Sequence record: PP759150
DNA from: Escherichia phage HH3
Direction: 5' to 3' (one strand)
DNA: 44,661 bases
The notes under the pieces are model-generated. The model searched no databases and had not been told where the DNA came from. It saw only the letters and a list, made by a program, of their open reading frames with translations. How positions within the stretch are numbered: position 1 is the first letter of the stretch; the number at the start of each line of letters is the position of its first letter. A program made the translations under genes and the position numbers. This document shows, piece by piece, positions 2,009 through 11,920 of the stretch.

Positions 2009-2060
2009 TTATGCAAGCGTGATATAGTCCCAGTGAGATAAAACTTACTGGGACTTTTTT

Positions 2061-2351
2061 ATGGATAAGCTAAACGAGTGGCTATTCGCCCTGGCATGTC
2101 TGGCGGGTGGCTTCGTAGGCGCACGCATTCATGGCGATGCTACGAAGGGGCCGCTAAACTTCGTTTTGTATGTCGTAGTTGGCTTCCTGTGTGCCATATT
2201 TGGCGCACCGGCTATTGCCGAGTGGGCTGGTTTGTCGGGGGAGCGCACTGTCGCCGGTTTGGGCTTCGTAACCGCAATCTTCTGGATGCCAATCGCCGAC
2301 CGGATCAGGGAGACTATTGCGTCGTTCCGACTTCCGGGAGGTGCAAAATGA
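2061..2351 (+). CDS. holin-like membrane protein (96 aa)
   Basis: Two to three hydrophobic segments; immediately upstream of the endolysin; ATGA overlap with next gene. Confidence 0.6.
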   Translation: MDKLNEWLFALACLAGGFVGARIHGDATKGPLNFVLYVVVGFLCAIFGAPAIAEWAGLSGERTVAGLGFVTAIFWMPIADRIRETIASFRLPGGAK

Positions 2352-2593
2352 TTATCTCCGTCCTGTTGTTTGTTATCATCGGGGCTTCGTCCCTGTTTAA
2401 CGTGTATGCGCCGTCCGTCCAGGATGGCATTTTCGGTCGGGTGCTGTATCTGCTAACGGCAATGGTCTGTATTATCGGATTGTTGCAAACAGGAGACGTA
2501 TCTGATACCACCTGGACCGCGTTAATCTGGCTGTTTGCATTGCGCACCCTGCGTAATGCTGTTTTGAATGAGGTAAAACATGCGATTCAGTGA
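2348..2593 (+). CDS. small membrane protein, holin or antiholin partner (81 aa)
   Basis: Strong RBS gggagg; two hydrophobic segments; C-terminal part of track ORF 2078-2593, which I consider N-terminally over-extended. Confidence 0.5.
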   Translation: MIISVLLFVIIGASSLFNVYAPSVQDGIFGRVLYLLTAMVCIIGLLQTGDVSDTTWTALIWLFALRTLRNAVLNEVKHAIQ

Positions 2594-3071
2594 CAACGGT
2601 CTAAGATTCACGGCAGCATGGGAGGCTTTCAGCCCGGTGCCGTATTTCGCGACCAAGAAAGAGCAGGCCCGCGGCCTGTACACCTGGGGTTATGGTCATA
2701 CAGGCACTAATCCGCCTCGAAGCATTACCCGCGAGGAAGCGCTGGCACTGCTCAAGCGCGATGTGGCGTATGCCGAGGCTTGGGTGAACAAATACGCGCA
2801 TAAGAGCATTAACCAGGCGCAATTCGACGCGCTGGTGGACCTGGTAATCAACGCCGGTCCTGGCCCGATCGTACCGGATGACGTCGCCGGTGACTTCGAC
2901 GATGCTGTCCGCCTGGGTGACTGGGCAAAAGTCCGGGCTACACTGCCACAATTCCGCAAGCAAGGCGGGGAAGTGCTTAAGGGTCTGGTACGCCGTGCAA
3001 TCGGCAGACAGGCGTTATTTGATGGTAAGCAGTGGGACGTTGCCGAGCGAATCGGTCGTAACGCTGCATAA
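2580..3071 (+). CDS. endolysin, glycoside hydrolase family 24 (T4-lysozyme-like)
   Basis: Motif region ...KKEQARGLYTWGYGHTG... matches the GH24 lysozyme catalytic-region pattern; follows holin-like genes. Confidence 0.8.
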   Translation: MRFSDNGLRFTAAWEAFSPVPYFATKKEQARGLYTWGYGHTGTNPPRSITREEALALLKRDVAYAEAWVNKYAHKSINQAQFDALVDLVINAGPGPIVPDDVAGDFDDAVRLGDWAKVRATLPQFRKQGGEVLKGLVRRAIGRQALFDGKQWDVAERIGRNAA

Positions 3072-3087
3072 TACGAGGTGACACGAT

Positions 3088-3255
3088 ATGTTAAAAAGTA
3101 TTCTTGATCATAATGCGGACGCGCTTGCCGCACTGGCTAAAACCGAAGACCCAGGCGCACGCGCTATCATCGCGGACACTATCAACCACGCTGGGGTCTT
3201 TGATGCGAAGCTGCCAAGCCCACCACCGCCGGAAGAACCCGGCCCCGAAGCGTAA
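3088..3255 (+). CDS. small hypothetical protein (55 aa, Pro-rich C-terminus)
   Basis: Hand-translated ORF with RBS gaggtg; below ORF-track size cutoff. Confidence 0.3.
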   Translation: MLKSILDHNADALAALAKTEDPGARAIIADTINHAGVFDAKLPSPPPPEEPGPEA

Positions 3256-3262
3256 ACAATCA

Positions 3263-3286
3263 AGCCCGGTTAATTCCGGGCTTTTT
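3263..3286 (+). terminator. rho-independent terminator
   Basis: agcccgg-ttaatt-ccgggct followed by TTTTT. Confidence 0.7.
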
Positions 3287-3327: not shown

Positions 3328-3486
3328 ATGGCACGTAAAGATGTTTGGGTATTGGCAATCTGGACCACCGCGGCTTTTATCGGCATGGTTATTTGCGAAT
3401 TGATATTGCCCGCCGCCATATGGACCGTGGTATATTGTCCACGGTCCACTAATCAGGAATTAATTAAATATGCACCCGCAAACTAA
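3328..3486 (+). CDS. small membrane protein (52 aa)
   Basis: RBS agaggag 8 nt upstream of ATG at 3328; hydrophobic core VWVLAIWTTAAFIGMVICELILPAAIWTVVY; 9-mer motif at 3299-3306 just upstream. Confidence 0.45.
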   Translation: MARKDVWVLAIWTTAAFIGMVICELILPAAIWTVVYCPRSTNQELIKYAPAN

Positions 3487-4612
3487 AATTACCGATGAGC
3501 AATTGATCGCAGAAATTCAGGCAGGGACTACGGTTAAAGAGATTGCGAAGAAATACGGCATTGCACTTCGAAATGTCTATATGCGCAAAGCCCGCCTATC
3601 GAAAAAGGGAATTGGTCACGGTAATGATGCCGTGATCCGTAAGCGAGTTGCAGATGGCTTCGGGGTTAAACGCGTGTCTGCCCTGGTGCGCGGTAATGGC
3701 GAAGAGGTCATGTCGTGGGTCATCACTGAGCAGGATAAGGAGCGCCAACTCGAAGCCATGCGCGCTGTGGTCGAGGGTATGAACAGCGAAATCACACCGG
3801 CAGCGCCCGTAAACGCCCCATGCCAGTATACCCAGGCGCTCGACTTGCTCAACCTGTACACTGTGTCCGACTTCCACCTGGGTATGCTGGCATGGGGCGA
3901 GGAGACTGGAGAAGATTGGGATATGGCGATCGCCGAAGACCTGTTCTACCGCTGGTTTGTCGAAGCCTTCGCACGCGCACCAGACGCAGGCACTGCCGTG
4001 ATCAACATCCTCGGGGATATGGCCCACTTTGATAGTCTCGATGCCGTCACCCCTGCCAGCGGGCACGTATTGGACGCCGACACCCGGTACCAGAAGTTGG
4101 TCCGCTACATGATTCGCATGGTGCGCAACGTCGTAGAACTTGCGCTGCAAAAACACTACAAAGTCAAACTGCTAATCGTCCAGGGTAATCATGACGAATC
4201 CGGTATGATTTGGCTTGCTGAGATGTTCAATACCTTGTATGAGAACGAGCCGCGCGTCGATGTGGACACGTCCCCGGACGTCTACAAAATGGTGCAGCAC
4301 GGTAAGACTACGCTATTTTTCCACCACGGGCACAAAGCGCGATTCGATGTTATCGAGCAGGTTATGATCGCTAAATTCAGACAGGCGTTCGGGGCGAGCG
4401 AATACAGCTACGCGCACGTAGGCCATTTGCACCACCAGAAGATTGTTGAATCCCGCAACATGATTGTTGAACAGCACCGGACGCTCGCAGCGAAAGACGC
4501 CTACGCCAGTCGTGGCGGTTGGATGTCCGGTCGCAGCGCAAACGTCATCACCTATAGCGCCAACTACGGAGAAGTAGCGCGCTTAACCATTAGCCCGGAA
4601 ATGTTGAAATGA
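3470..4612 (+). CDS. HTH domain fused to calcineurin-like metallophosphoesterase (Mre11/SbcD-like motif set), 380 aa
   Basis: N-terminal HTH-like TTVKEIAKKYGIALRNVY; phosphoesterase motifs SDFHLG, GDMAHFD, GNHDE, GHLHH in canonical order. Confidence 0.6.
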   Translation: MHPQTKITDEQLIAEIQAGTTVKEIAKKYGIALRNVYMRKARLSKKGIGHGNDAVIRKRVADGFGVKRVSALVRGNGEEVMSWVITEQDKERQLEAMRAVVEGMNSEITPAAPVNAPCQYTQALDLLNLYTVSDFHLGMLAWGEETGEDWDMAIAEDLFYRWFVEAFARAPDAGTAVINILGDMAHFDSLDAVTPASGHVLDADTRYQKLVRYMIRMVRNVVELALQKHYKVKLLIVQGNHDESGMIWLAEMFNTLYENEPRVDVDTSPDVYKMVQHGKTTLFFHHGHKARFDVIEQVMIAKFRQAFGASEYSYAHVGHLHHQKIVESRNMIVEQHRTLAAKDAYASRGGWMSGRSANVITYSANYGEVARLTISPEMLK

Positions 4613-4821
4613 TCAGACAAGTATTCATGAGCACGCAGGCCACCCGCCTGAAAGAACTACGCAAACAACTCGAAGGCTTGCGCCGATTCGAACAAACGGC
4701 AGCGGCGGTAGGCATGTCTATCAGCGAACGGATCGAGATACTATCGCAAATACGCTACACAGAGGGCGCGATAAGCGAAGTACAAAGCATGTTAACCCGA
4801 TACTACGGGCGCGACGTTTAA
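4609..4821 (+). CDS. hypothetical coiled-coil protein (70 aa)
   Basis: ATGA coupling with upstream gene. Confidence 0.4.
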   Translation: MIRQVFMSTQATRLKELRKQLEGLRRFEQTAAAVGMSISERIEILSQIRYTEGAISEVQSMLTRYYGRDV

Positions 4822-4938
4822 ACCGCATAGCCTGCCGATTTGGTGGGCTTTTTTGTGCCTGTTATAATCCCCCTTAGATGGCAGGGCCGTCTCCTATGTT
4901 GCCGATGGTCGGCGCATATGAACAAAAGGGCTTATATC

Positions 4939-5490
4939 ATGGCAGAAATCAAAGTTAAGGGCCGACGCGCCAAACTGGACGGACGAGTAGCAGTAACCCC
5001 GCGCCGTAAACCAGGCGAGCAAACCGAGCATACCAATCTCGGACCTGAAATCGAGTACGGAAAGCGCCGTAAAGGCGGCAAATGTGGACGCCCTACTGAC
5101 TACCGATCCGTTTACTGCGACCAGCTTCGCCGCTATTTTGCCGACGCCGACGCCTGGCAGGTAAACTACTCCGATAAAGGCGCTGCGCAAGTAATCCCCC
5201 GCAACAAAATGCCAACCTTCGGTCGATTTGCCGCGGAAATCGGTGTGGGCGTAGCTTGCCTGTATCGCTGGGCGCGTGCGCATGAGGAGTTCGCCGAGGC
5301 GATGGCTGACGCTATGGAGTTGCAGAAAACCTTCCTGATGGAAGCTGGCGGCGTGACCATCGCGGCGGGCTTCGCTACATTCCTGCTTAAAGCAAACCAC
5401 GGCGTCCGCGACGACGTACCGCTGGATGACGACGAAGATGATAACGGCGACGTCGTTGTGGAACCTACCGGCAAAGGTCAGGGTGATTAA
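4939..5490 (+). CDS. terminase small subunit (start uncertain, 4918 or 4939)
   Basis: Position directly upstream of TerL; TerS-like segment FGRFAAEIGVGVACLYRWARAHEEFAEAM; acidic C-terminus. Confidence 0.6.
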   Translation: MAEIKVKGRRAKLDGRVAVTPRRKPGEQTEHTNLGPEIEYGKRRKGGKCGRPTDYRSVYCDQLRRYFADADAWQVNYSDKGAAQVIPRNKMPTFGRFAAEIGVGVACLYRWARAHEEFAEAMADAMELQKTFLMEAGGVTIAAGFATFLLKANHGVRDDVPLDDDEDDNGDVVVEPTGKGQGD

Positions 5491-6875
5491 TGCGTAACTA
5501 TGCGGCAGAACATCGCGCACTGGAACGCGCGATCGCAAAGCGCAACCGACCGCCACGCCCTACACGCGTTGCGCAGGCCGTCCGCCTTTACCAACCTGAT
5601 TGCCTTCCGCACCAGGTCGAACTATTGCGCGACACGAAGACTAAAATCCTCGGCCTGTGTTCCGGCTTCGGTGGTGGAAAGTCGTGGGTCGCTGCGCGTA
5701 AGGTCATCCAGCTTTTAACCCTGAACCCAGGCCATGACGGCATCGTGACCGAACCGACTATTCCACTCCTGGTTAAAATCATGTATCCGGAACTGGAGAA
5801 GGCATTCGACGAGGCTGGCTTCCGGTGGAAGTTCAATAAGCAGGACAAGATCTACAACGTGCTGGTGAAAGGCAAATGGACCCGCGTTATATGTGAATCA
5901 ATGGAGAATTATACCCGCCTGATCGGGGTCAACGCCGCGTGGATTGTTGCCGATGAATTCGACACCACTAAGCAAGACGTTGCTATGGCGGCATATCACA
6001 AATTGCTCGGTCGTCTGCGTGCTGGCTTCGTCCGCCAGTTCGTCATCGTGTCAACGCCTGAAGGCTACCGGGCGATGTACCAAATTTTCGAGGTGGAGAA
6101 AGACAACCAGAAACGCTTGATCCGGGCGAAGACCACGGACAACCACCATTTACCGGCAGACTTTATCGACACGCTGCGCAGTCAGTACCCGGCTAACCTG
6201 ATCGACGCGTACCTGAACGGCCTGTTTGTTAACCTTACGTCGGGCGCGGTGTACAAGATGTTCAACCGCGAGGAGAACGCCAGCACCGAAGAAGTGAAGC
6301 CGGACGACACGCTGATTATCGGTATGGACTTTAACGTCACGAAGATGGCGGCGGTTGTGTACGTCAGACGGCAGCGAGTCACCGAGAACAAGGAGTTCCG
6401 TGACGAGATTCACGCGGTGGATGAATTTGTGGACCTGTTTGACACCCCGGCTATGATTGAGGCGATCGAAGAGCGCTACCCGGAACATTGTGCCGCCGGT
6501 AGGGTCGTCGTTTACCCGGATAGCAGTGGCAAGTCCCGCAAAACGGTTAACGCGTCGTCGTCCGATATCGCACAACTGGAAGACGCTGGCTTTGATGTGG
6601 AATATGACAGCGTTAACCCGCCAGTGAAAGACCGATTGATCGCGATGAATACGATGATGTGCAACTCGAAGGGGGTGCGCCAGTATTTTGTCAACCTGGA
6701 TAAATGCCCTACACTAGCGAAATGTCTGGAACAGCAGGTGTATGACCTGAAGAAAGGCGAACCGGATAAGACCGCCGGTGTGGACCACATGAATGACGCG
6801 GCTGGCTACCCTATTGCGCACTTGTTCCCTGTGATTCGTCCGATCGCCGTTGTTCCAACCGTAGACTTCTACTAA
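5490..6875 (+). CDS. terminase large subunit (461 aa)
   Basis: Walker A-like LCSGFGGGKSW near N-terminus; size and position before portal. Confidence 0.85.
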   Translation: MRNYAAEHRALERAIAKRNRPPRPTRVAQAVRLYQPDCLPHQVELLRDTKTKILGLCSGFGGGKSWVAARKVIQLLTLNPGHDGIVTEPTIPLLVKIMYPELEKAFDEAGFRWKFNKQDKIYNVLVKGKWTRVICESMENYTRLIGVNAAWIVADEFDTTKQDVAMAAYHKLLGRLRAGFVRQFVIVSTPEGYRAMYQIFEVEKDNQKRLIRAKTTDNHHLPADFIDTLRSQYPANLIDAYLNGLFVNLTSGAVYKMFNREENASTEEVKPDDTLIIGMDFNVTKMAAVVYVRRQRVTENKEFRDEIHAVDEFVDLFDTPAMIEAIEERYPEHCAAGRVVVYPDSSGKSRKTVNASSSDIAQLEDAGFDVEYDSVNPPVKDRLIAMNTMMCNSKGVRQYFVNLDKCPTLAKCLEQQVYDLKKGEPDKTAGVDHMNDAAGYPIAHLFPVIRPIAVVPTVDFY

Positions 6876-6886
6876 GGAAACCGACC

Positions 6887-8407
6887 ATGACCGTTAACGT
6901 TGACAACCAGCACCCGCTCTATGCGCGCATCGCGCCAGAGTGGAAAATGATCCGTGACTGCGTAGCAGGGGAGCGCGCCGTGAAGGCGTGCGGCCCATTA
7001 TACCTGCCACACCCCGCAAGCGGCGACACCACCGACCCTAAATCGCGTGCGCGTTATAAGGCGTATAAGCAGCGCGCCGTCTTCCTGAACGCCACCGCCC
7101 GAACCCTTAACGCACTGTTAGGTGTCGCCTTCGCCAAACCGGTGAGTCTCGACCTTTCCGGGGCAATGGCTGACCTGATTGATGACGTCGACGGCAGTGG
7201 TATGCCGCTGCCGCAACTCCTGCGCGGTGCTATGTCGGAAGTGCTGCAATCAGGCCGTGCGGGCTTTATGGTGGACTACGATCGCCAGGCGCATTTTGAT
7301 GAACTTGGTAACGTAGTGCCGCAGACAGCCGCTGAGATGGCGTCACACCGCCCGCTTATCCGCCTGTACACGGCTGAACAGATCATCAACTGGCGGCAGA
7401 CACACGGTGTCGACACGCTAATCGTGCTGAAGGAAACGGACGAAATCAGCACCGAAGACCCGGACGACTTCGCAAACCACGAGGTAACCATCTGGACCGA
7501 GCTTCGCATGATTGACGGCAAGGCACATGCCCGCCGCTGGTTTTACAACGCGGACACGTCCGAGGTGCAAATGGACTTGCCGCGGGGATTCACCCGCACC
7601 GACCTTGTACCACTGGTGGATGCCGCTGGTAACGCGCTTACGCAACTGCCTTTCTGTTGGTGTGGCGCGGTGGATAACAATGCAACACCAGATGCAGCAC
7701 CGCTGGCGGATATAGCGTCCATCAACATTAAGCACTACAACGCCGAAGCAGACGTCGCCGAGATTGCGCACATCGTGGGTCAACCTACACTCATTGCGAC
7801 GGGTCTGACCCAATCATGGGCGGATAAAAACCTGAAGGGCGGGATCGCACTCGGGGCAACTAAGGGCGTTATCCTGGGCCAGAACATGGACGCTAAACTG
7901 CTTCAGGCGGAGGAGAGAAACCTGTCAGTTGCGCTGTGTGAGCGACGCGAGTTGCAAATGGCTAAACTGGGAGCGGCCCTGGTCGAGAAGGGGACCGCAC
8001 CTAAGACGGCAACTGAAGCAGCCTACGATGCGCAGACTGATAACAGTATCCTGTCACTGATTGCCGGTAACGTTGAGAAGGCTTTCAACCGTGCGCTGCA
8101 AATCGTCAAGCTGTTCACTGGCGACACCGCAGATCAACGCGTAACGCTGAATAAGTTCTACACCGAGATCACGGTTGATGCACAGCTTATGACCGCGATG
8201 ATGGCGGGTGTGCAGACCGGTACGGTCCGTCTGGCGGACTTTATCAAGTGGATGATGGCCCAGGGCGTTATCGATGACTCGCAAACCGTTGAGCAGGTGG
8301 AAGACGAATTGCGAAATCAGAATCCATTGCCTCAAATGTCACCGGATGCGGTAGAATCTACCGAAGAAGACCCGGACAAGGTAGCGGACAATGGCGAAGA
8401 CAATTAA
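6887..8407 (+). CDS. portal protein (506 aa)
   Basis: Size and position immediately after TerL; acidic C-terminal tail. Confidence 0.75.
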   Translation: MTVNVDNQHPLYARIAPEWKMIRDCVAGERAVKACGPLYLPHPASGDTTDPKSRARYKAYKQRAVFLNATARTLNALLGVAFAKPVSLDLSGAMADLIDDVDGSGMPLPQLLRGAMSEVLQSGRAGFMVDYDRQAHFDELGNVVPQTAAEMASHRPLIRLYTAEQIINWRQTHGVDTLIVLKETDEISTEDPDDFANHEVTIWTELRMIDGKAHARRWFYNADTSEVQMDLPRGFTRTDLVPLVDAAGNALTQLPFCWCGAVDNNATPDAAPLADIASINIKHYNAEADVAEIAHIVGQPTLIATGLTQSWADKNLKGGIALGATKGVILGQNMDAKLLQAEERNLSVALCERRELQMAKLGAALVEKGTAPKTATEAAYDAQTDNSILSLIAGNVEKAFNRALQIVKLFTGDTADQRVTLNKFYTEITVDAQLMTAMMAGVQTGTVRLADFIKWMMAQGVIDDSQTVEQVEDELRNQNPLPQMSPDAVESTEEDPDKVADNGEDN

Positions 8408-9494
8408 TCAATATATGGCGGATCGAATGATTCGCCGACACATCTTCACCCAGCGCCTGAGTAATGACCAGGCGCGAAGGGTGCTGTCCATGTGGGGGAA
8501 GTTCCGGCCTACATTACTGGGAAAGCTGACTGAGTTACTTGATGGCAAATCGTCAATGAATAACAAGGCACTTTCCACTCTGTTAACGCAAATCGACAAG
8601 ACTGTTAAAGCAGAATTGCGCACCGAGTTTAAGGCGTTGGCTGAAAGCCTTCAGGAGTTTGCCGACACCGAGGCCGATTATCTCGCCGACACATTAACGG
8701 CAGCGATCCAGCCGGTGGTCGCCGTACCTGCGGTCGAGGTGGTTGGCGTAGTGACCGGTGCGCAGATCGCAGCGACTGCGATGAAGAACCCGTTCCAGGG
8801 TAATACTATGATGCAATGGCCTGACTCACTTTCTGAGTGGACCAGGACGCAGATCGGTAATCAGGTGCGGGCGGGATTCATCCAGGGCAAGCCAACGATG
8901 GAAATTATAGCGGACGTGAGGCGCGCACTCGGCGGTCGTAGTGCGCAAGCTATCTCAAGCGTTGTTAAGTCCGCAGTCAACCACTATGCGGCGACAGCCC
9001 GCGAATTAATGGTGAAAGCTAATGACGATATTCTCGAAGGTCGCCAATGGTTATCTACATTGGACACGCATACTTCTCCCATGTGCCAGCTACGCGATCG
9101 CCTGTTTTATCCGGTTGATGTTACTCCCGACACCAAAGGAAAGCGCGGCGGGAAAATGGTGGCTGGGTCACAATATGGCGCTGGGCCGGGCAAGTTGCAT
9201 TATTGTTGCCGGTCTACGGAGACGTGGAAGGTTAAAGGCATGGAAGATTGGCCCAGTGGTAAGCGTCCGGCACTAAAGGCTGACGCGGGCAGATTGCTGA
9301 GTGAGCAGGTTGACGCGCAGACTGATTTCTTCTCATGGGTGCAGCGCCAGCCGCGCCATATCCTGGAAGAGTTATACGGAGTGCAACGCGCCGACCAGAT
9401 TATGCGCGGCGTGAAAGTGCCGAAGATGTTCACCGATTCCGGCGAACTAATGACTATCGCACAGCTTAAAAACCGGGGGTTATGGCGTGATTAA
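8391..9494 (+). CDS. head morphogenesis protein (Mu gpF / SPP1 gp7-like minor head protein)
   Basis: Follows portal; contains the GKLHYCCRS Cys motif typical of the Mu F-like domain. Confidence 0.65.
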   Translation: MAKTINQYMADRMIRRHIFTQRLSNDQARRVLSMWGKFRPTLLGKLTELLDGKSSMNNKALSTLLTQIDKTVKAELRTEFKALAESLQEFADTEADYLADTLTAAIQPVVAVPAVEVVGVVTGAQIAATAMKNPFQGNTMMQWPDSLSEWTRTQIGNQVRAGFIQGKPTMEIIADVRRALGGRSAQAISSVVKSAVNHYAATARELMVKANDDILEGRQWLSTLDTHTSPMCQLRDRLFYPVDVTPDTKGKRGGKMVAGSQYGAGPGKLHYCCRSTETWKVKGMEDWPSGKRPALKADAGRLLSEQVDAQTDFFSWVQRQPRHILEELYGVQRADQIMRGVKVPKMFTDSGELMTIAQLKNRGLWRD

Positions 9495-9816
9495 GTATGC
9501 GGCTATTGGGCTGGTTATAGGTCTGGCGGTAGGATTCTGGCTAGGTGACTCCTATCGCGCTGGCGTAGTGGCGGAGGCGGCGCAAGAAGCGCAAGCCGAA
9601 GCACAACGGCAGCAAACTAAAGTTGTTGAGCGCTCCGTGCAGGCAGAACAAGCCCGCGACGTGGAATACCGGACTATCACGAAAGAGGTTGTAAAATATG
9701 TTACGCGCCCTAACCGCCCTGATTGTAGTTTTGATGCTGAGCGCGTGCGGATCAAGCAACGTGCCGTTGATGCCGCTAACGGAGTCGGCACTGCGACCGC
9801 CGTGCAAGTTCGATAG
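9487..9816 (+). CDS. Rz-like i-spanin (109 aa)
   Basis: N-terminal transmembrane anchor IGLVIGLAVGFWLG followed by charged coiled-coil region. Confidence 0.6.
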   Translation: MIKYAAIGLVIGLAVGFWLGDSYRAGVVAEAAQEAQAEAQRQQTKVVERSVQAEQARDVEYRTITKEVVKYVTRPNRPDCSFDAERVRIKQRAVDAANGVGTATAVQVR

Positions 9817-9928
9817 CCCGTCCGCAGACCCCGACGAGGATTTGATGATTGACGTGAAAAATATGGAATGCGGGGCGAAGCTAAGGGCGCAGGTGCTGGA
9901 GTTGCAGCAAATAATTAAGGGGCCGTAA
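9698..9928 (+). CDS. Rz1-like o-spanin lipoprotein (76 aa), overlapping Rz in another frame
   Basis: Signal peptide with lipobox LSAC, Pro-rich mature part; out-of-frame overlap with Rz-like gene is the classic spanin arrangement. Confidence 0.6.
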   Translation: MLRALTALIVVLMLSACGSSNVPLMPLTESALRPPCKFDSPSADPDEDLMIDVKNMECGAKLRAQVLELQQIIKGP

Positions 9929-9941
9929 TGGCCCCTTTTTC
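9917..9941. terminator. bidirectional rho-independent terminator
   Basis: ggggcc-gtaat-ggcccc followed by TTTTT; lies between convergent genes. Confidence 0.7.
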
Positions 9942-9942
9942 G

Positions 9943-10707
9943 TTAGCGCGGAATGCCACAAATCTCGTTGAGTGTTTTCACGTCCAGCGCCACCGCCGTG
10001 GTTTTTGGCTTGTCCGGGTATGGGATGAATTGCTCAACTTCAGGCCATGCCTTAATCAGCTTCTTGTCAGTATTGTGCAGGTCCAGCACACCGGTAACGG
10101 TGAGTTTGAACGCATCAAACTTCGCGCGCAACTCGCGACGGGCATTGTCGTTTCGGTCCAAGCGCTTACAGAAGTCATGGCCCGCCGGGTAGTCTACGCG
10201 ACCGCGAGGAAGATATATCGGCAGCGCTTTCCCGTCCTCGTCAACTTCGCACACTGACGCGAGCATAACTGTCTCGAACCCCGGAACGATATCGCCGAGA
10301 TCAGGCGCGAGCTTATTCATATATTTCTCTTCCCAGTATCCTCGATGTACGCGGTATTGGCGACCGTCACCGCTCAAGGACAAGGTGCGAACATTTCCGC
10401 CTGCGTTGATTTCGAAAGTGGCGTCGTAAACGCTGCCGATACCTTTCGGGCGGTCGGTGTTATAACTATACGTCGCCTTGTTGGTGTATACGCTGACGCC
10501 GTACATCTGCGACTGGTCATCGCGGATTGACAGGATATGCTCGCGTAGCGCGGCGAATGTGCGAATGCCGTCCGGCATACAGTCCAGCGTGATTGCGTAC
10601 GCCAGGTCGCGAGAGTCCATCATGATTGTTTTGGCTTCGGTAGCGATTTCGTGGTCGCGCAGGATGTTAGCCAGGATCTGATTTTTAATGTCTTTCGTCA
10701 GTCTCAT
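9943..10707 (-). CDS. hypothetical protein (254 aa), second gene of antisense cassette
   Basis: Minus-strand ORF inside plus-strand morphogenesis block; no motif recognised. Confidence 0.6.
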   Translation of the reverse strand: MRLTKDIKNQILANILRDHEIATEAKTIMMDSRDLAYAITLDCMPDGIRTFAALREHILSIRDDQSQMYGVSVYTNKATYSYNTDRPKGIGSVYDATFEINAGGNVRTLSLSGDGRQYRVHRGYWEEKYMNKLAPDLGDIVPGFETVMLASVCEVDEDGKALPIYLPRGRVDYPAGHDFCKRLDRNDNARRELRAKFDAFKLTVTGVLDLHNTDKKLIKAWPEVEQFIPYPDKPKTTAVALDVKTLNEICGIPR

Positions 10708-10746
10708 TTTTATGTCCTCATTTTAGGGGCTTTCGCCCCGATTGGT

Positions 10747-11061
10747 TTAGTTGAATTTGATGTTGCCACCGGTGGAAGTTAAGCGAGCACATACAGCTTC
10801 AACGGCATCGACGCACATGAAATCGTTAAAGGCTTCGACCAGGGCGTTTATGAAAGATGCCGGAACCAGGCAGCAAGCCGGATTATCGAATGTAGCGGAG
10901 TTGATCGCCGCTTTTGCCGCTTCAGAAGCATTCATGCTCTGGCACAGATTCAGCGCTTCCGCGTTACGCATTGCGTGAAAGGTAAAGGTATTCGCTACGG
11001 TAGCTTTATTGAAACGGGCCATTGCGGCGTCTACTGGAGTTGCTACGGTCATGTTAGTCAT
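10747..11061 (-). CDS. hypothetical protein (104 aa), first gene of antisense cassette
   Basis: Start chosen at ATG 11061 with strong RBS aaggaag; track ORF is extended to 11121. Confidence 0.5.
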   Translation of the reverse strand: MTNMTVATPVDAAMARFNKATVANTFTFHAMRNAEALNLCQSMNASEAAKAAINSATFDNPACCLVPASFINALVEAFNDFMCVDAVEAVCARLTSTGGNIKFN

Positions 11062-11085
11062 TTTGTCTTCCTTCATATCTCTGTT

Positions 11086-11115: not shown

Positions 11116-11215
11116 CCGCAATGCAAGCGAATTTTGCGATTATTTTTATCGCTGATAATATTAAGGCGTGAAGTCAAGCGGGTGGCCCGCTTTGCCACAA
11201 TCCCAGGGGGATAGC

Positions 11216-11920
11216 ATGAAACTTACTAAAGCAGAATATGACGCGTTGCCGGAAGGTATGAAGGCGCTTTTTGTCGCCGATGGCGACGGGTACAAATCAA
11301 CGTTCATGACCGCCGAAGAAGTACAGGCGGAGATCAAGGGTCTGAAAGACAACAACGCGAAGCTGGTTAGCGAGAAGAAAGCAGAAGCCGAACGTCGCGC
11401 CGAAGCCGAGCGCATCGCGAAAGAGAAAGAGGAAGCCGCCGCGCGCAAAAATGGCGACCTCGAAGCGATCGATAAGTCCTGGAAAGATAAGTTCGCGAAA
11501 CACGAAGCAGACACATCAGGGAAAATCGAAGCCTATCGCAAGCAGATCCACGACCTAACCATCGGCAGCGCTGCCAAAGATTTGGCCTCGAAGCTGTTCG
11601 GTAAGAATGCCGGCATCATGCAACGCCACGTTATGGACCGCCTCACGCTGGAAGACGGAGAAGACGGCAGCCTGAAGGTGCGGGTATTGAAGGATGGCAA
11701 ACCGTCCGCGCTGACTATGGACGAACTGGAGAAAGAATTCCGTAGTAACGCCGATTTTGCATCCGTCCTGGCGGGCACGCCAGCCGGTGGTGCGCCGAGC
11801 AAACCGACGCAGGTCGTAGAAGATGTGAAGTCGAAAATCACTATGGGCCACAGCTTCGGTATCACTGACTTGACGAAACAGGCCGGGGATATCATCGCTA
11901 AAATGGGCGACGACGAGTAA
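11216..11920 (+). CDS. scaffolding protein (start at ATG 11216; track ORF begins at GTG 11168)
   Basis: RBS aggggg; Ala/Glu/Lys-rich coiled-coil sequence; directly upstream of major capsid gene. Confidence 0.6.
   Translation: MKLTKAEYDALPEGMKALFVADGDGYKSTFMTAEEVQAEIKGLKDNNAKLVSEKKAEAERRAEAERIAKEKEEAAARKNGDLEAIDKSWKDKFAKHEADTSGKIEAYRKQIHDLTIGSAAKDLASKLFGKNAGIMQRHVMDRLTLEDGEDGSLKVRVLKDGKPSALTMDELEKEFRSNADFASVLAGTPAGGAPSKPTQVVEDVKSKITMGHSFGITDLTKQAGDIIAKMGDDE

Follow-up and report, generated by a model that had tools for sequence, protein, structure and literature searches.

Escherichia phage HH3 (sequence record PP759150) was analysed over a stretch of 44,661 nucleotides, hereafter the window, in which a pair of small overlapping genes resembling Rz and Rz1 lies in the head gene cluster and the holin and endolysin genes lie elsewhere. 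The locus raises the question of whether this pair is the spanin of the phage, and of whether its position is peculiar to this phage or common to its relatives. The region is 94-96% identical in nucleotide sequence to many Dhillonvirus (HK578-like) coliphages, and the window belongs to a phage of that group.

Holin and endolysin genes

Two holin genes, at 2061-2351 (+; phrog_2359, E = 8.3e-32) and 2348-2593 (+; phrog_2508, E = 2.2e-27), overlap through an ATGA, the second being a possible holin/antiholin partner of the first, and are followed by an endolysin gene at 2580-3071 (+) that encodes a GH24 phage lysozyme (PF00959, E = 9.5e-21; phrog_7) without an N-terminal signal-anchor. The terminator scan returned a strong hairpin with a T6 tract at 2026-2055 (+), just 5' of the holin start codon, and the 91-nt stretch around this hairpin is 99% identical in three Dhillonviruses. 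A terminator hairpin at 3262-3283 (+), found in the same scan and identical in phage Oekolampad, closes the holin-endolysin unit. The ORFs after the endolysin encode a 55-aa acidic soluble protein (3088-3255; phrog_11068, E = 1.5e-38) and a 52-aa membrane protein that lacks a lipobox (3328-3486).

The endolysin stop is separated from the start of the Rz-like gene by 6,415 nt and eight genes, namely the 55-aa and 52-aa ORFs, a DNA repair exonuclease, a 70-aa ORF, the small and large terminases, the portal and a head-morphogenesis gene. The lysis genes had been described in a sequence-only reading of the window as split, with holin and endolysin at 2061-3071 and the spanins at a distance, and the measured gap bears this out. 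The gene order differs from that of a canonical lambda-type cassette in that neither the endolysin nor the holins have spanin genes next to them, and the ORFs that do adjoin the endolysin carry no spanin signals. Another spanin, two-component or unimolecular, was sought beside the endolysin and across the whole window, and none was found.

An overlapping gene pair read in two frames

The Rz-like (i-spanin) gene is an ORF of 109 aa with a GTG start at 9487-9816 (+), and its product matched phrog_2536 'Rz-like spanin' in the PHROG search (E = 1.7e-36). This start and the stop of the head-morphogenesis gene have an 8-nt overlap (GTGATTAA), and a Shine-Dalgarno-like GGGGG run is located 7 nt upstream of the GTG. 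Residues 1-19 form the sole hydrophobic segment of the protein (Kyte-Doolittle mean 1.9), with Lys3 on its N side, and the rest is hydrophilic (later hydropathy windows ≤0.1). The product thus has a single N-terminal transmembrane domain (about residues 1-20), with the remainder predicted to be periplasmic, and the transmembrane anchor ascribed to the Rz-like gene from the letters alone agrees with both the hydropathy and the PHROG match. The predicted periplasmic part contains one cysteine, Cys80, which is invariant in 17 Dhillonvirus relatives. A single-sequence AF2 model of low confidence (pLDDT 61) placed helices at residues 5-72 and 84-97, with a break at PNRPDC. Two helices are also the published prediction for the 'EP23 to SO-1' i-spanin subfamily (PMC6139136). 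The low-confidence model suggests the same two-helix-plus-linker layout here, and likewise suggests a coiled coil in the periplasmic domain.

The Rz1-like (o-spanin) gene is an ORF at 9698-9928 (+) with an ATG start, preceded 9 nt 5' by AAGAGG, and encodes a lipoprotein precursor of 76 aa. Its frame is +1 relative to the i-spanin gene and the two genes have 119 nt in common, which places the pair in the overlapped class of spanins. The N-terminus of the precursor reads MLRALTALIVVLMLSAC followed by GSS and comprises Arg3, a hydrophobic core and the lipobox L-S-A-C, with Cys17 as the lipobox cysteine and Gly at +2, that is, a signal peptidase II signal without a Lol-avoidance residue at +2. The mature protein would comprise 60 aa, including 7 Pro and two further cysteines (Cys36 and Cys58), and Cys17, Cys36 and Cys58 are invariant in the 17 Dhillonvirus relatives. 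The cysteines available in the periplasm for an intermolecular disulfide are therefore C80 of the i-spanin and C36 and C58 of the o-spanin.

Both PHROG matches of the o-spanin are to 'Rz-like spanin' profiles (phrog_5672, E = 4.1e-26; phrog_1267, E = 1.5e-11), so that the ORF, the N-terminal signal and the profile matches all support the out-of-frame overlapping Rz1-like lipoprotein gene, with lipobox LSAC, that had been proposed at this place. Spanin prediction had been suggested as a check at the same time, and PHROGs call both proteins Rz-like spanins. A Pfam search gave no match for either protein, its spanin-related models included, and in this the pair differs from lambda Rz/Rz1. A lipobox scan from every possible start in six frames of the whole window returned other lipobox ORFs only antisense to large genes; the o-spanin is the only credible lipobox ORF of the window.

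An ORF by itself means little here, because the window holds 227 ORFs of at least 60 aa. Coding was assessed in an alignment of 17 distinct Dhillonvirus sequences (16 IMG/VR loci together with GenBank loci), in all 17 of which the i-spanin and o-spanin frames are open. Before the overlap, nucleotide diversity was highest at the third codon position of the i-spanin frame (0.225, against 0.080 and 0.039 at the other two); after it, diversity was highest at the third position of the o-spanin frame (0.229, against 0.096 and 0.028). Within the overlap the differences between codon positions were flattened, and the most variable position changed frame at the overlap boundaries. Nei-Gojobori counts over the non-overlapping parts of the genes gave pN/pS values of 0.17 for the i-spanin and 0.13 for the o-spanin in their own frames, against 1.2-4.6 for the same DNA in the wrong frames. 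It follows from codon-position diversity and pN/pS that both genes are real and constrained: both frames are truly coding and under purifying selection.

These values bear on the idea that the pair is a decaying relic and that outer-membrane disruption has passed to the product of the 55-aa gene, in the manner of the phiKT disruptin. That gene, a conserved small ORF, does fill the usual spanin slot after the endolysin, but its acidic product lacks amphipathic cationic character and it is swapped for an unrelated gene in SSL-2009a, whereas in each relative both spanin frames are under strong purifying selection and keep their signals intact. Such a takeover is extremely improbable.

Packaging-gene surroundings and gene order in related phages

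The head-morphogenesis (minor head) gene that precedes the pair (8391-9494, +; phrog_241, E = 2.5e-116) follows tightly packed small terminase, large terminase and portal genes (4918-8407, +; phrog_3064, phrog_10250/phrog_2 and phrog_145, respectively). The overlap of its stop with the i-spanin start suggests translational coupling of the i-spanin. Upstream of the small terminase gene, the terminator scan placed a hairpin at 4829-4849 (+), and a perfect extended -10 promoter-like element, TGTTATAAT, lies 3' of it at 4860-4868 (+); the latter was recognised by eye and falls under the -35 criterion of the scan tool. Terminator and promoter-like element (4829-4868) are conserved in 11 Dhillonvirus loci, where changes in the stem retain pairing. 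At the other end of the gene series, an intrinsic terminator hairpin at 9917-9937 (+; terminator scan) contains the o-spanin stop codon and is kept in 17 loci, with compensatory changes in its arms (AAGGGGCC/GGCCCCTT versus CGGGGGCC/GGCCCCC).

A convergent gene with an Nmad5 domain (9943-10707, -; PF18757, E = 1.3e-57) ends 6 nt past this terminator and is accompanied by a second antisense gene (10747-11076, -; phrog_24635). These two genes (9943-11076) are cargo whose presence varies among relatives and are not part of the lysis system. The head scaffolding gene (11216-11920, +; phrog_206, E = 2.4e-51) is preceded by a promoter-like motif, TGATAATAT, at 11153-11161. The spanins had been placed between the head-morphogenesis and scaffold genes; this position is correct, but the pair does not adjoin the scaffold gene directly, as the two antisense genes intervene.

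On this arrangement, the spanin genes are the predicted final cistrons of a packaging/head operon of ~5 kb that runs from the terminase to the spanins and is distinct from the holin-endolysin unit. Separate regulation of the spanins and of the holin-endolysin unit had been taken to be implied by their separation. At the level of transcription units it is plausible from the motifs, since the terminators at 3262-3283, 4829-4849 and 9917-9937 and the element TGTTATAAT suggest separate units, but 'implies' is too strong a word for a reading of this kind. Literature searches for transcript or expression data in these phages found none; the conserved terminator and promoter punctuation is a testable transcript map for the Dhillonvirus group.

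A tblastn search with the i-spanin returned 666 phage records, the majority from Salmonella and Escherichia phages of the Dhillonvirus and Guernseyvirinae groups. The pair is located directly 3' of the head-morphogenesis gene in 17/17 Dhillonvirus loci, and spanins lie between the head-morphogenesis and scaffold genes also in Jersey, K1G, Hafnia TS33 and Oekolampad. A comparison of lysis-gene synteny, proposed with the sequence-only reading, therefore yielded the same spanin placement throughout the relatives compared (17 Dhillonvirus loci, Jersey, K1G and Hafnia TS33). At the homologous place 'Rz-like spanin' is annotated twice in RefSeq SSL-2009a, and 'i-spanin' and 'o-spanin' are annotated in the BASEL phage Oekolampad; many deposited Dhillonvirus records label both genes 'hypothetical protein'.

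HK578, JL1, SSL-2009a, EP23 and SO-1 were placed by Kongari et al. 2018 in the 'Jersey' overlapped i-/o-spanin families, which also take in Salmonella Jersey-like and K1G-like phages and within which 'EP23 to SO-1' is a subfamily with a shorter, two-helix i-spanin and conserved o-spanin cysteines (PMC6139136). Against the Jersey pair, the window proteins show 44% (i-spanin, E = 2e-16) and 47% (o-spanin, E = 1e-21) identity, and by sequence the pair is a member of this overlapped family. EP23, JL1 and SSL-2009a have i-spanins that match that of the window at 95-99% identity, and the pair resembles the 'EP23 to SO-1' subfamily in its overlapped +1 architecture, o-spanin cysteines and place after the head-morphogenesis gene, and perhaps in a two-helix i-spanin. 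Differences from that subfamily are at the level of alleles only, for example at the C-terminus of the i-spanin, which has 109 aa in the window as against 102 aa for the Oekolampad clade.

The Guernseyvirinae (Salmonella phage Jersey gp09/gp10, E. coli phage K1G ORF5/ORF6, phage Schulenberg) carry a homologous pair in the same split layout, and in Jersey the holin-holin-endolysin block lies upstream of the terminase, as in the window. Between the head-morphogenesis gene and the spanins, Jersey and K1G carry a Hoc-like decoration gene together with a small ORF, and their scaffold gene follows the spanins directly on the same strand, unlike in the window, where the i-spanin start overlaps the head-morphogenesis stop, and a terminator and the antisense Nmad5 cargo precede the scaffold gene. 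The separation of the spanins from the holin and endolysin is stated outright in the Schulenberg genome announcement (PMC6763661).

The T4 spanins pseT.3/pseT.2 are likewise unlinked to the endolysin (PMC6139136). They resemble the window pair in this respect and belong to an unrelated spanin family of separated architecture. Phage T7 encodes its endolysin as gp3.5 and its spanins, a pair of another unrelated family and of embedded architecture, as gp18.5 and gp18.7, so that these too are unlinked to the endolysin; the T7 gene numbers put 18.5 and 18.7 between terminase genes 18 and 19, and the T7 spanins are therefore also within packaging genes. The split layout is thus the conserved norm of Dhillonvirus and Guernseyvirinae, already published, and a minority arrangement among phages overall. 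To call it unusual, as had been done, was an overstatement for an arrangement that is fixed across the lineage, whose spanins are in a published census, whose split is in print for Schulenberg and which has precedents in T4 and T7.

Conservation of place also weighs on a different account, implied when the separation was called unusual, namely that a mobile lysis module (a moron) with independent regulation was recently gained or translocated in this phage alone. There is indeed a variable cargo slot just downstream of the pair, from the o-spanin terminator to the scaffold promoter, and the spanins of the Oekolampad clade have only 75-86% amino acid identity, compared with 96-99% for the head-morphogenesis and major capsid proteins, a hint of allele exchange. 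Recent acquisition is nevertheless very unlikely: the position is the same in 17/17 Dhillonvirus loci and is kept in Jerseyvirus, Kagunavirus and Hafnia TS33, phages that share only 24-27% identity with the window in the head-morphogenesis protein, and a dedicated promoter would not fit in front of the i-spanin start, which overlaps the upstream stop codon.

Homologues were also found in canonical cassettes. The order in the lambdoid Klebsiella phage ST13-OXA48phi12.5 is Q, holin, lysozyme and homologous i-/o-spanin, and that in Vibrio phage pYD38-A is endolysin, holin and i-/o-spanin, with an i-spanin 36% identical over the full length; in each, the i-spanin homologue has an overlapping lipoprotein ORF. 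By sequence homology, these cassettes lend independent support to a lysis role of the window pair. They stand against the view that the pair is a membrane protein and an outer-membrane lipoprotein with a function other than lysis, such as superinfection exclusion or receptor blocking of the Cor or Llp kind, in which case the outer membrane would be disrupted by something else or its disruption would not be needed. Small phage lipoproteins with exclusion roles exist (T5 Llp, phi80/N15 Cor), a location apart from the lysis genes would fit such a role, and literature searches found no experimental test, by complementation or localisation, of any Jersey-family spanin. The view is nonetheless highly improbable, given that a transmembrane protein with an overlapping lipoprotein gene in the +1 frame is the defining spanin architecture, that homologues directly follow holin and endolysin genes in the Klebsiella and Vibrio phages, and that the window contains no other candidate for a spanin, which a phage of a Gram-negative host normally needs.

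The pYD38-A cassette follows the portal and head-morphogenesis genes of that phage. This arrangement invites the reading that the spanins are the remnant of a complete ancestral lysis cassette at the head-morphogenesis/scaffold junction, that the ancestor of Dhillonvirus and Guernseyvirinae later gained a different holin-holin-endolysin block upstream of the terminase, and that the original holin and endolysin were lost, leaving 'orphaned' spanins hard-wired to the packaging operon. Such a history is unlikely; a BLASTP comparison of the pYD38-A and window head-morphogenesis proteins gave no significant similarity (E = 0.19), which weakens the idea. If it were true, spanin supply would be set by the head-assembly programme and not by the lysis-timing unit.

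Predicted mode of action and meaning for the phage group

Taking together the gene structure, the sorting signals, the sequence family, purifying selection in both frames and the conserved synteny, the pair is read, with a probability of about 0.9, as the only two-component spanin of the phage, at a position ancestral to Dhillonvirus and Guernseyvirinae and at the end of a terminase-portal-head-morphogenesis operon.

The mechanism of lambda Rz/Rz1 is established, and the account of spanin action given here is borrowed from it. Like the lambda pair, that of the window is predicted to combine a type II inner-membrane protein, perhaps with a helical periplasmic domain, and an outer-membrane lipoprotein encoded in the +1 frame, and to have periplasmic cysteines. 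The two differ in that Rz1 is fully embedded in Rz and the window genes are overlapped, and in that Rz/Rz1 sit in the S-R-Rz/Rz1 cassette under the control of pR' and Q.

By analogy with lambda, the i-spanin would insert into the inner membrane through its N-terminal helix in an N-in/C-out orientation, and the o-spanin would be lipidated at Cys17, cut by signal peptidase II and, with Gly at +2 and no Asp retention signal, carried by the Lol system into the inner leaflet of the outer membrane. The periplasmic C-terminal regions of the two proteins would bind each other through the peptidoglycan mesh, and C80 of the i-spanin and C36 and C58 of the o-spanin may form intermolecular disulfides. Expression of the pair would start from the extended -10 promoter at 4860-4868 and end at the terminator at 9917-9937, with translation of the i-spanin probably coupled to that of the head-morphogenesis gene. 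Spanin complexes would then build up harmlessly during late expression, caged by the peptidoglycan, until the holins (2061-2593) have triggered and the peptidoglycan has been destroyed by the endolysin (2580-3071); the freed complexes would fuse or disrupt the inner and outer membranes and so complete lysis. Late accumulation is all that the lambda paradigm requires of spanins, since intact peptidoglycan restrains them. Linkage of the spanins to the holin and endolysin genes is not required, because the holin sets the timing and the spanins are only needed late.

By sequence, the spanin identification is correct, and the split layout is already known and ordinary for this phage group. The finding matters little beyond correct annotation and has no bearing on an open question of phage lysis. 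As spanin genes need not be linked to holin and endolysin genes, annotation pipelines should search the head gene cluster for them, and phage engineers, for instance builders of lysis-deficient or lysis-tuned Dhillonvirus therapeutics, should look for them in the same place.

Spanin alleles of the Oekolampad clade and a homologous i-spanin in a Vibrio phage

The i-spanin gene (9487-9816, + strand) and the overlapping o-spanin gene (9698-9928, + strand) were compared with their counterparts in the clade of the Dhillonvirus relative Oekolampad, in which the i-spanin ends at codon 103 as against codon 109 in the window (region 9790-9816; comparison loci L004, L011, L016 and L020). Within this clade, spanin alleles share only 75-86% identity with those of the window, whereas the proteins encoded on either side, head-morphogenesis and major capsid, share 96-99%, which suggests that the head-morphogenesis/spanin junction marks a mosaic or recombination boundary. 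In Vibrio phage pYD38-A (L022), a full endolysin-holin-i/o-spanin cassette occupies 4203-5337, shortly 3' of the genes for the portal and head-morphogenesis proteins. The i-spanin encoded there is a homologue of that of the window (36% identity); the o-spanin ORF that overlaps it (5092-5337) is unannotated in the phage's record.

Variable slots and small membrane proteins

Amid the head gene cluster, two antisense genes occupy 9943-11076 (- strand), one encoding a product with nucleotide modification associated domain 5 (Nmad5; PF18757, 1.3e-57) and the other a protein matching phrog_24635. Dhillonviruses carry both genes, Nmad5 alone or phrog_24635 alone, depending on the locus, and both are absent from comparison loci L009, L010 and L016; the slot that runs from the spanin terminator (9917-9937) to the scaffold promoter is thus a hot-spot for cargo genes.

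A further variable cargo slot lies directly 3' of the endolysin gene (2580-3071), where the window encodes a conserved acidic protein of 55 aa whose tail is rich in proline (3088-3255; phrog_11068, 1.5e-38). The same gene fills this slot in Oekolampad; in SSL-2009a, another Dhillonvirus, it holds an unrelated 133-aa gene annotated as "structural protein with Ig domain". The 3088-3255 product is not a spanin.

Two small membrane proteins flank the lysis block: a 95-aa protein (1721-2008; phrog_2531) encoded shortly upstream of the holin hairpin, and a 52-aa single-TMD protein (3328-3486) encoded downstream of the 3262-3283 terminator behind a strong ribosome-binding site, AAGAGGAG, for which no PHROG match was found. 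Either could be a regulator of lysis or an exclusion protein.

The pre-holin hairpin and a shared extended -10 motif

Directly upstream of the holin ATG (2061) lies a strong 12-bp hairpin followed by T6 (2026-2055), the 3' arm of which contains the holin Shine-Dalgarno GGGA and the 5' arm of which is overlapped by an extended -10-like element, TGATATAGT (2020-2028). The 91-nt stretch around this hairpin is 99% identical among the window, Oekolampad and SSL-2009a, differing solely at a loop base. The hairpin may block read-through out of upstream genes, and transcripts initiating within it may evade termination and free the holin ribosome-binding site. The 2020-2028 element shares the extended -10 motif TGnTAnnnT with sites upstream of the predicted terminase operon (TGTTATAAT, 4860-4868) and of the scaffold and capsid genes (TGATAATAT, 11153-11161), and the -35 element is poor at all three. 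These phages may depend on promoters of the extended -10 type, which a standard two-hexamer scan would overlook.
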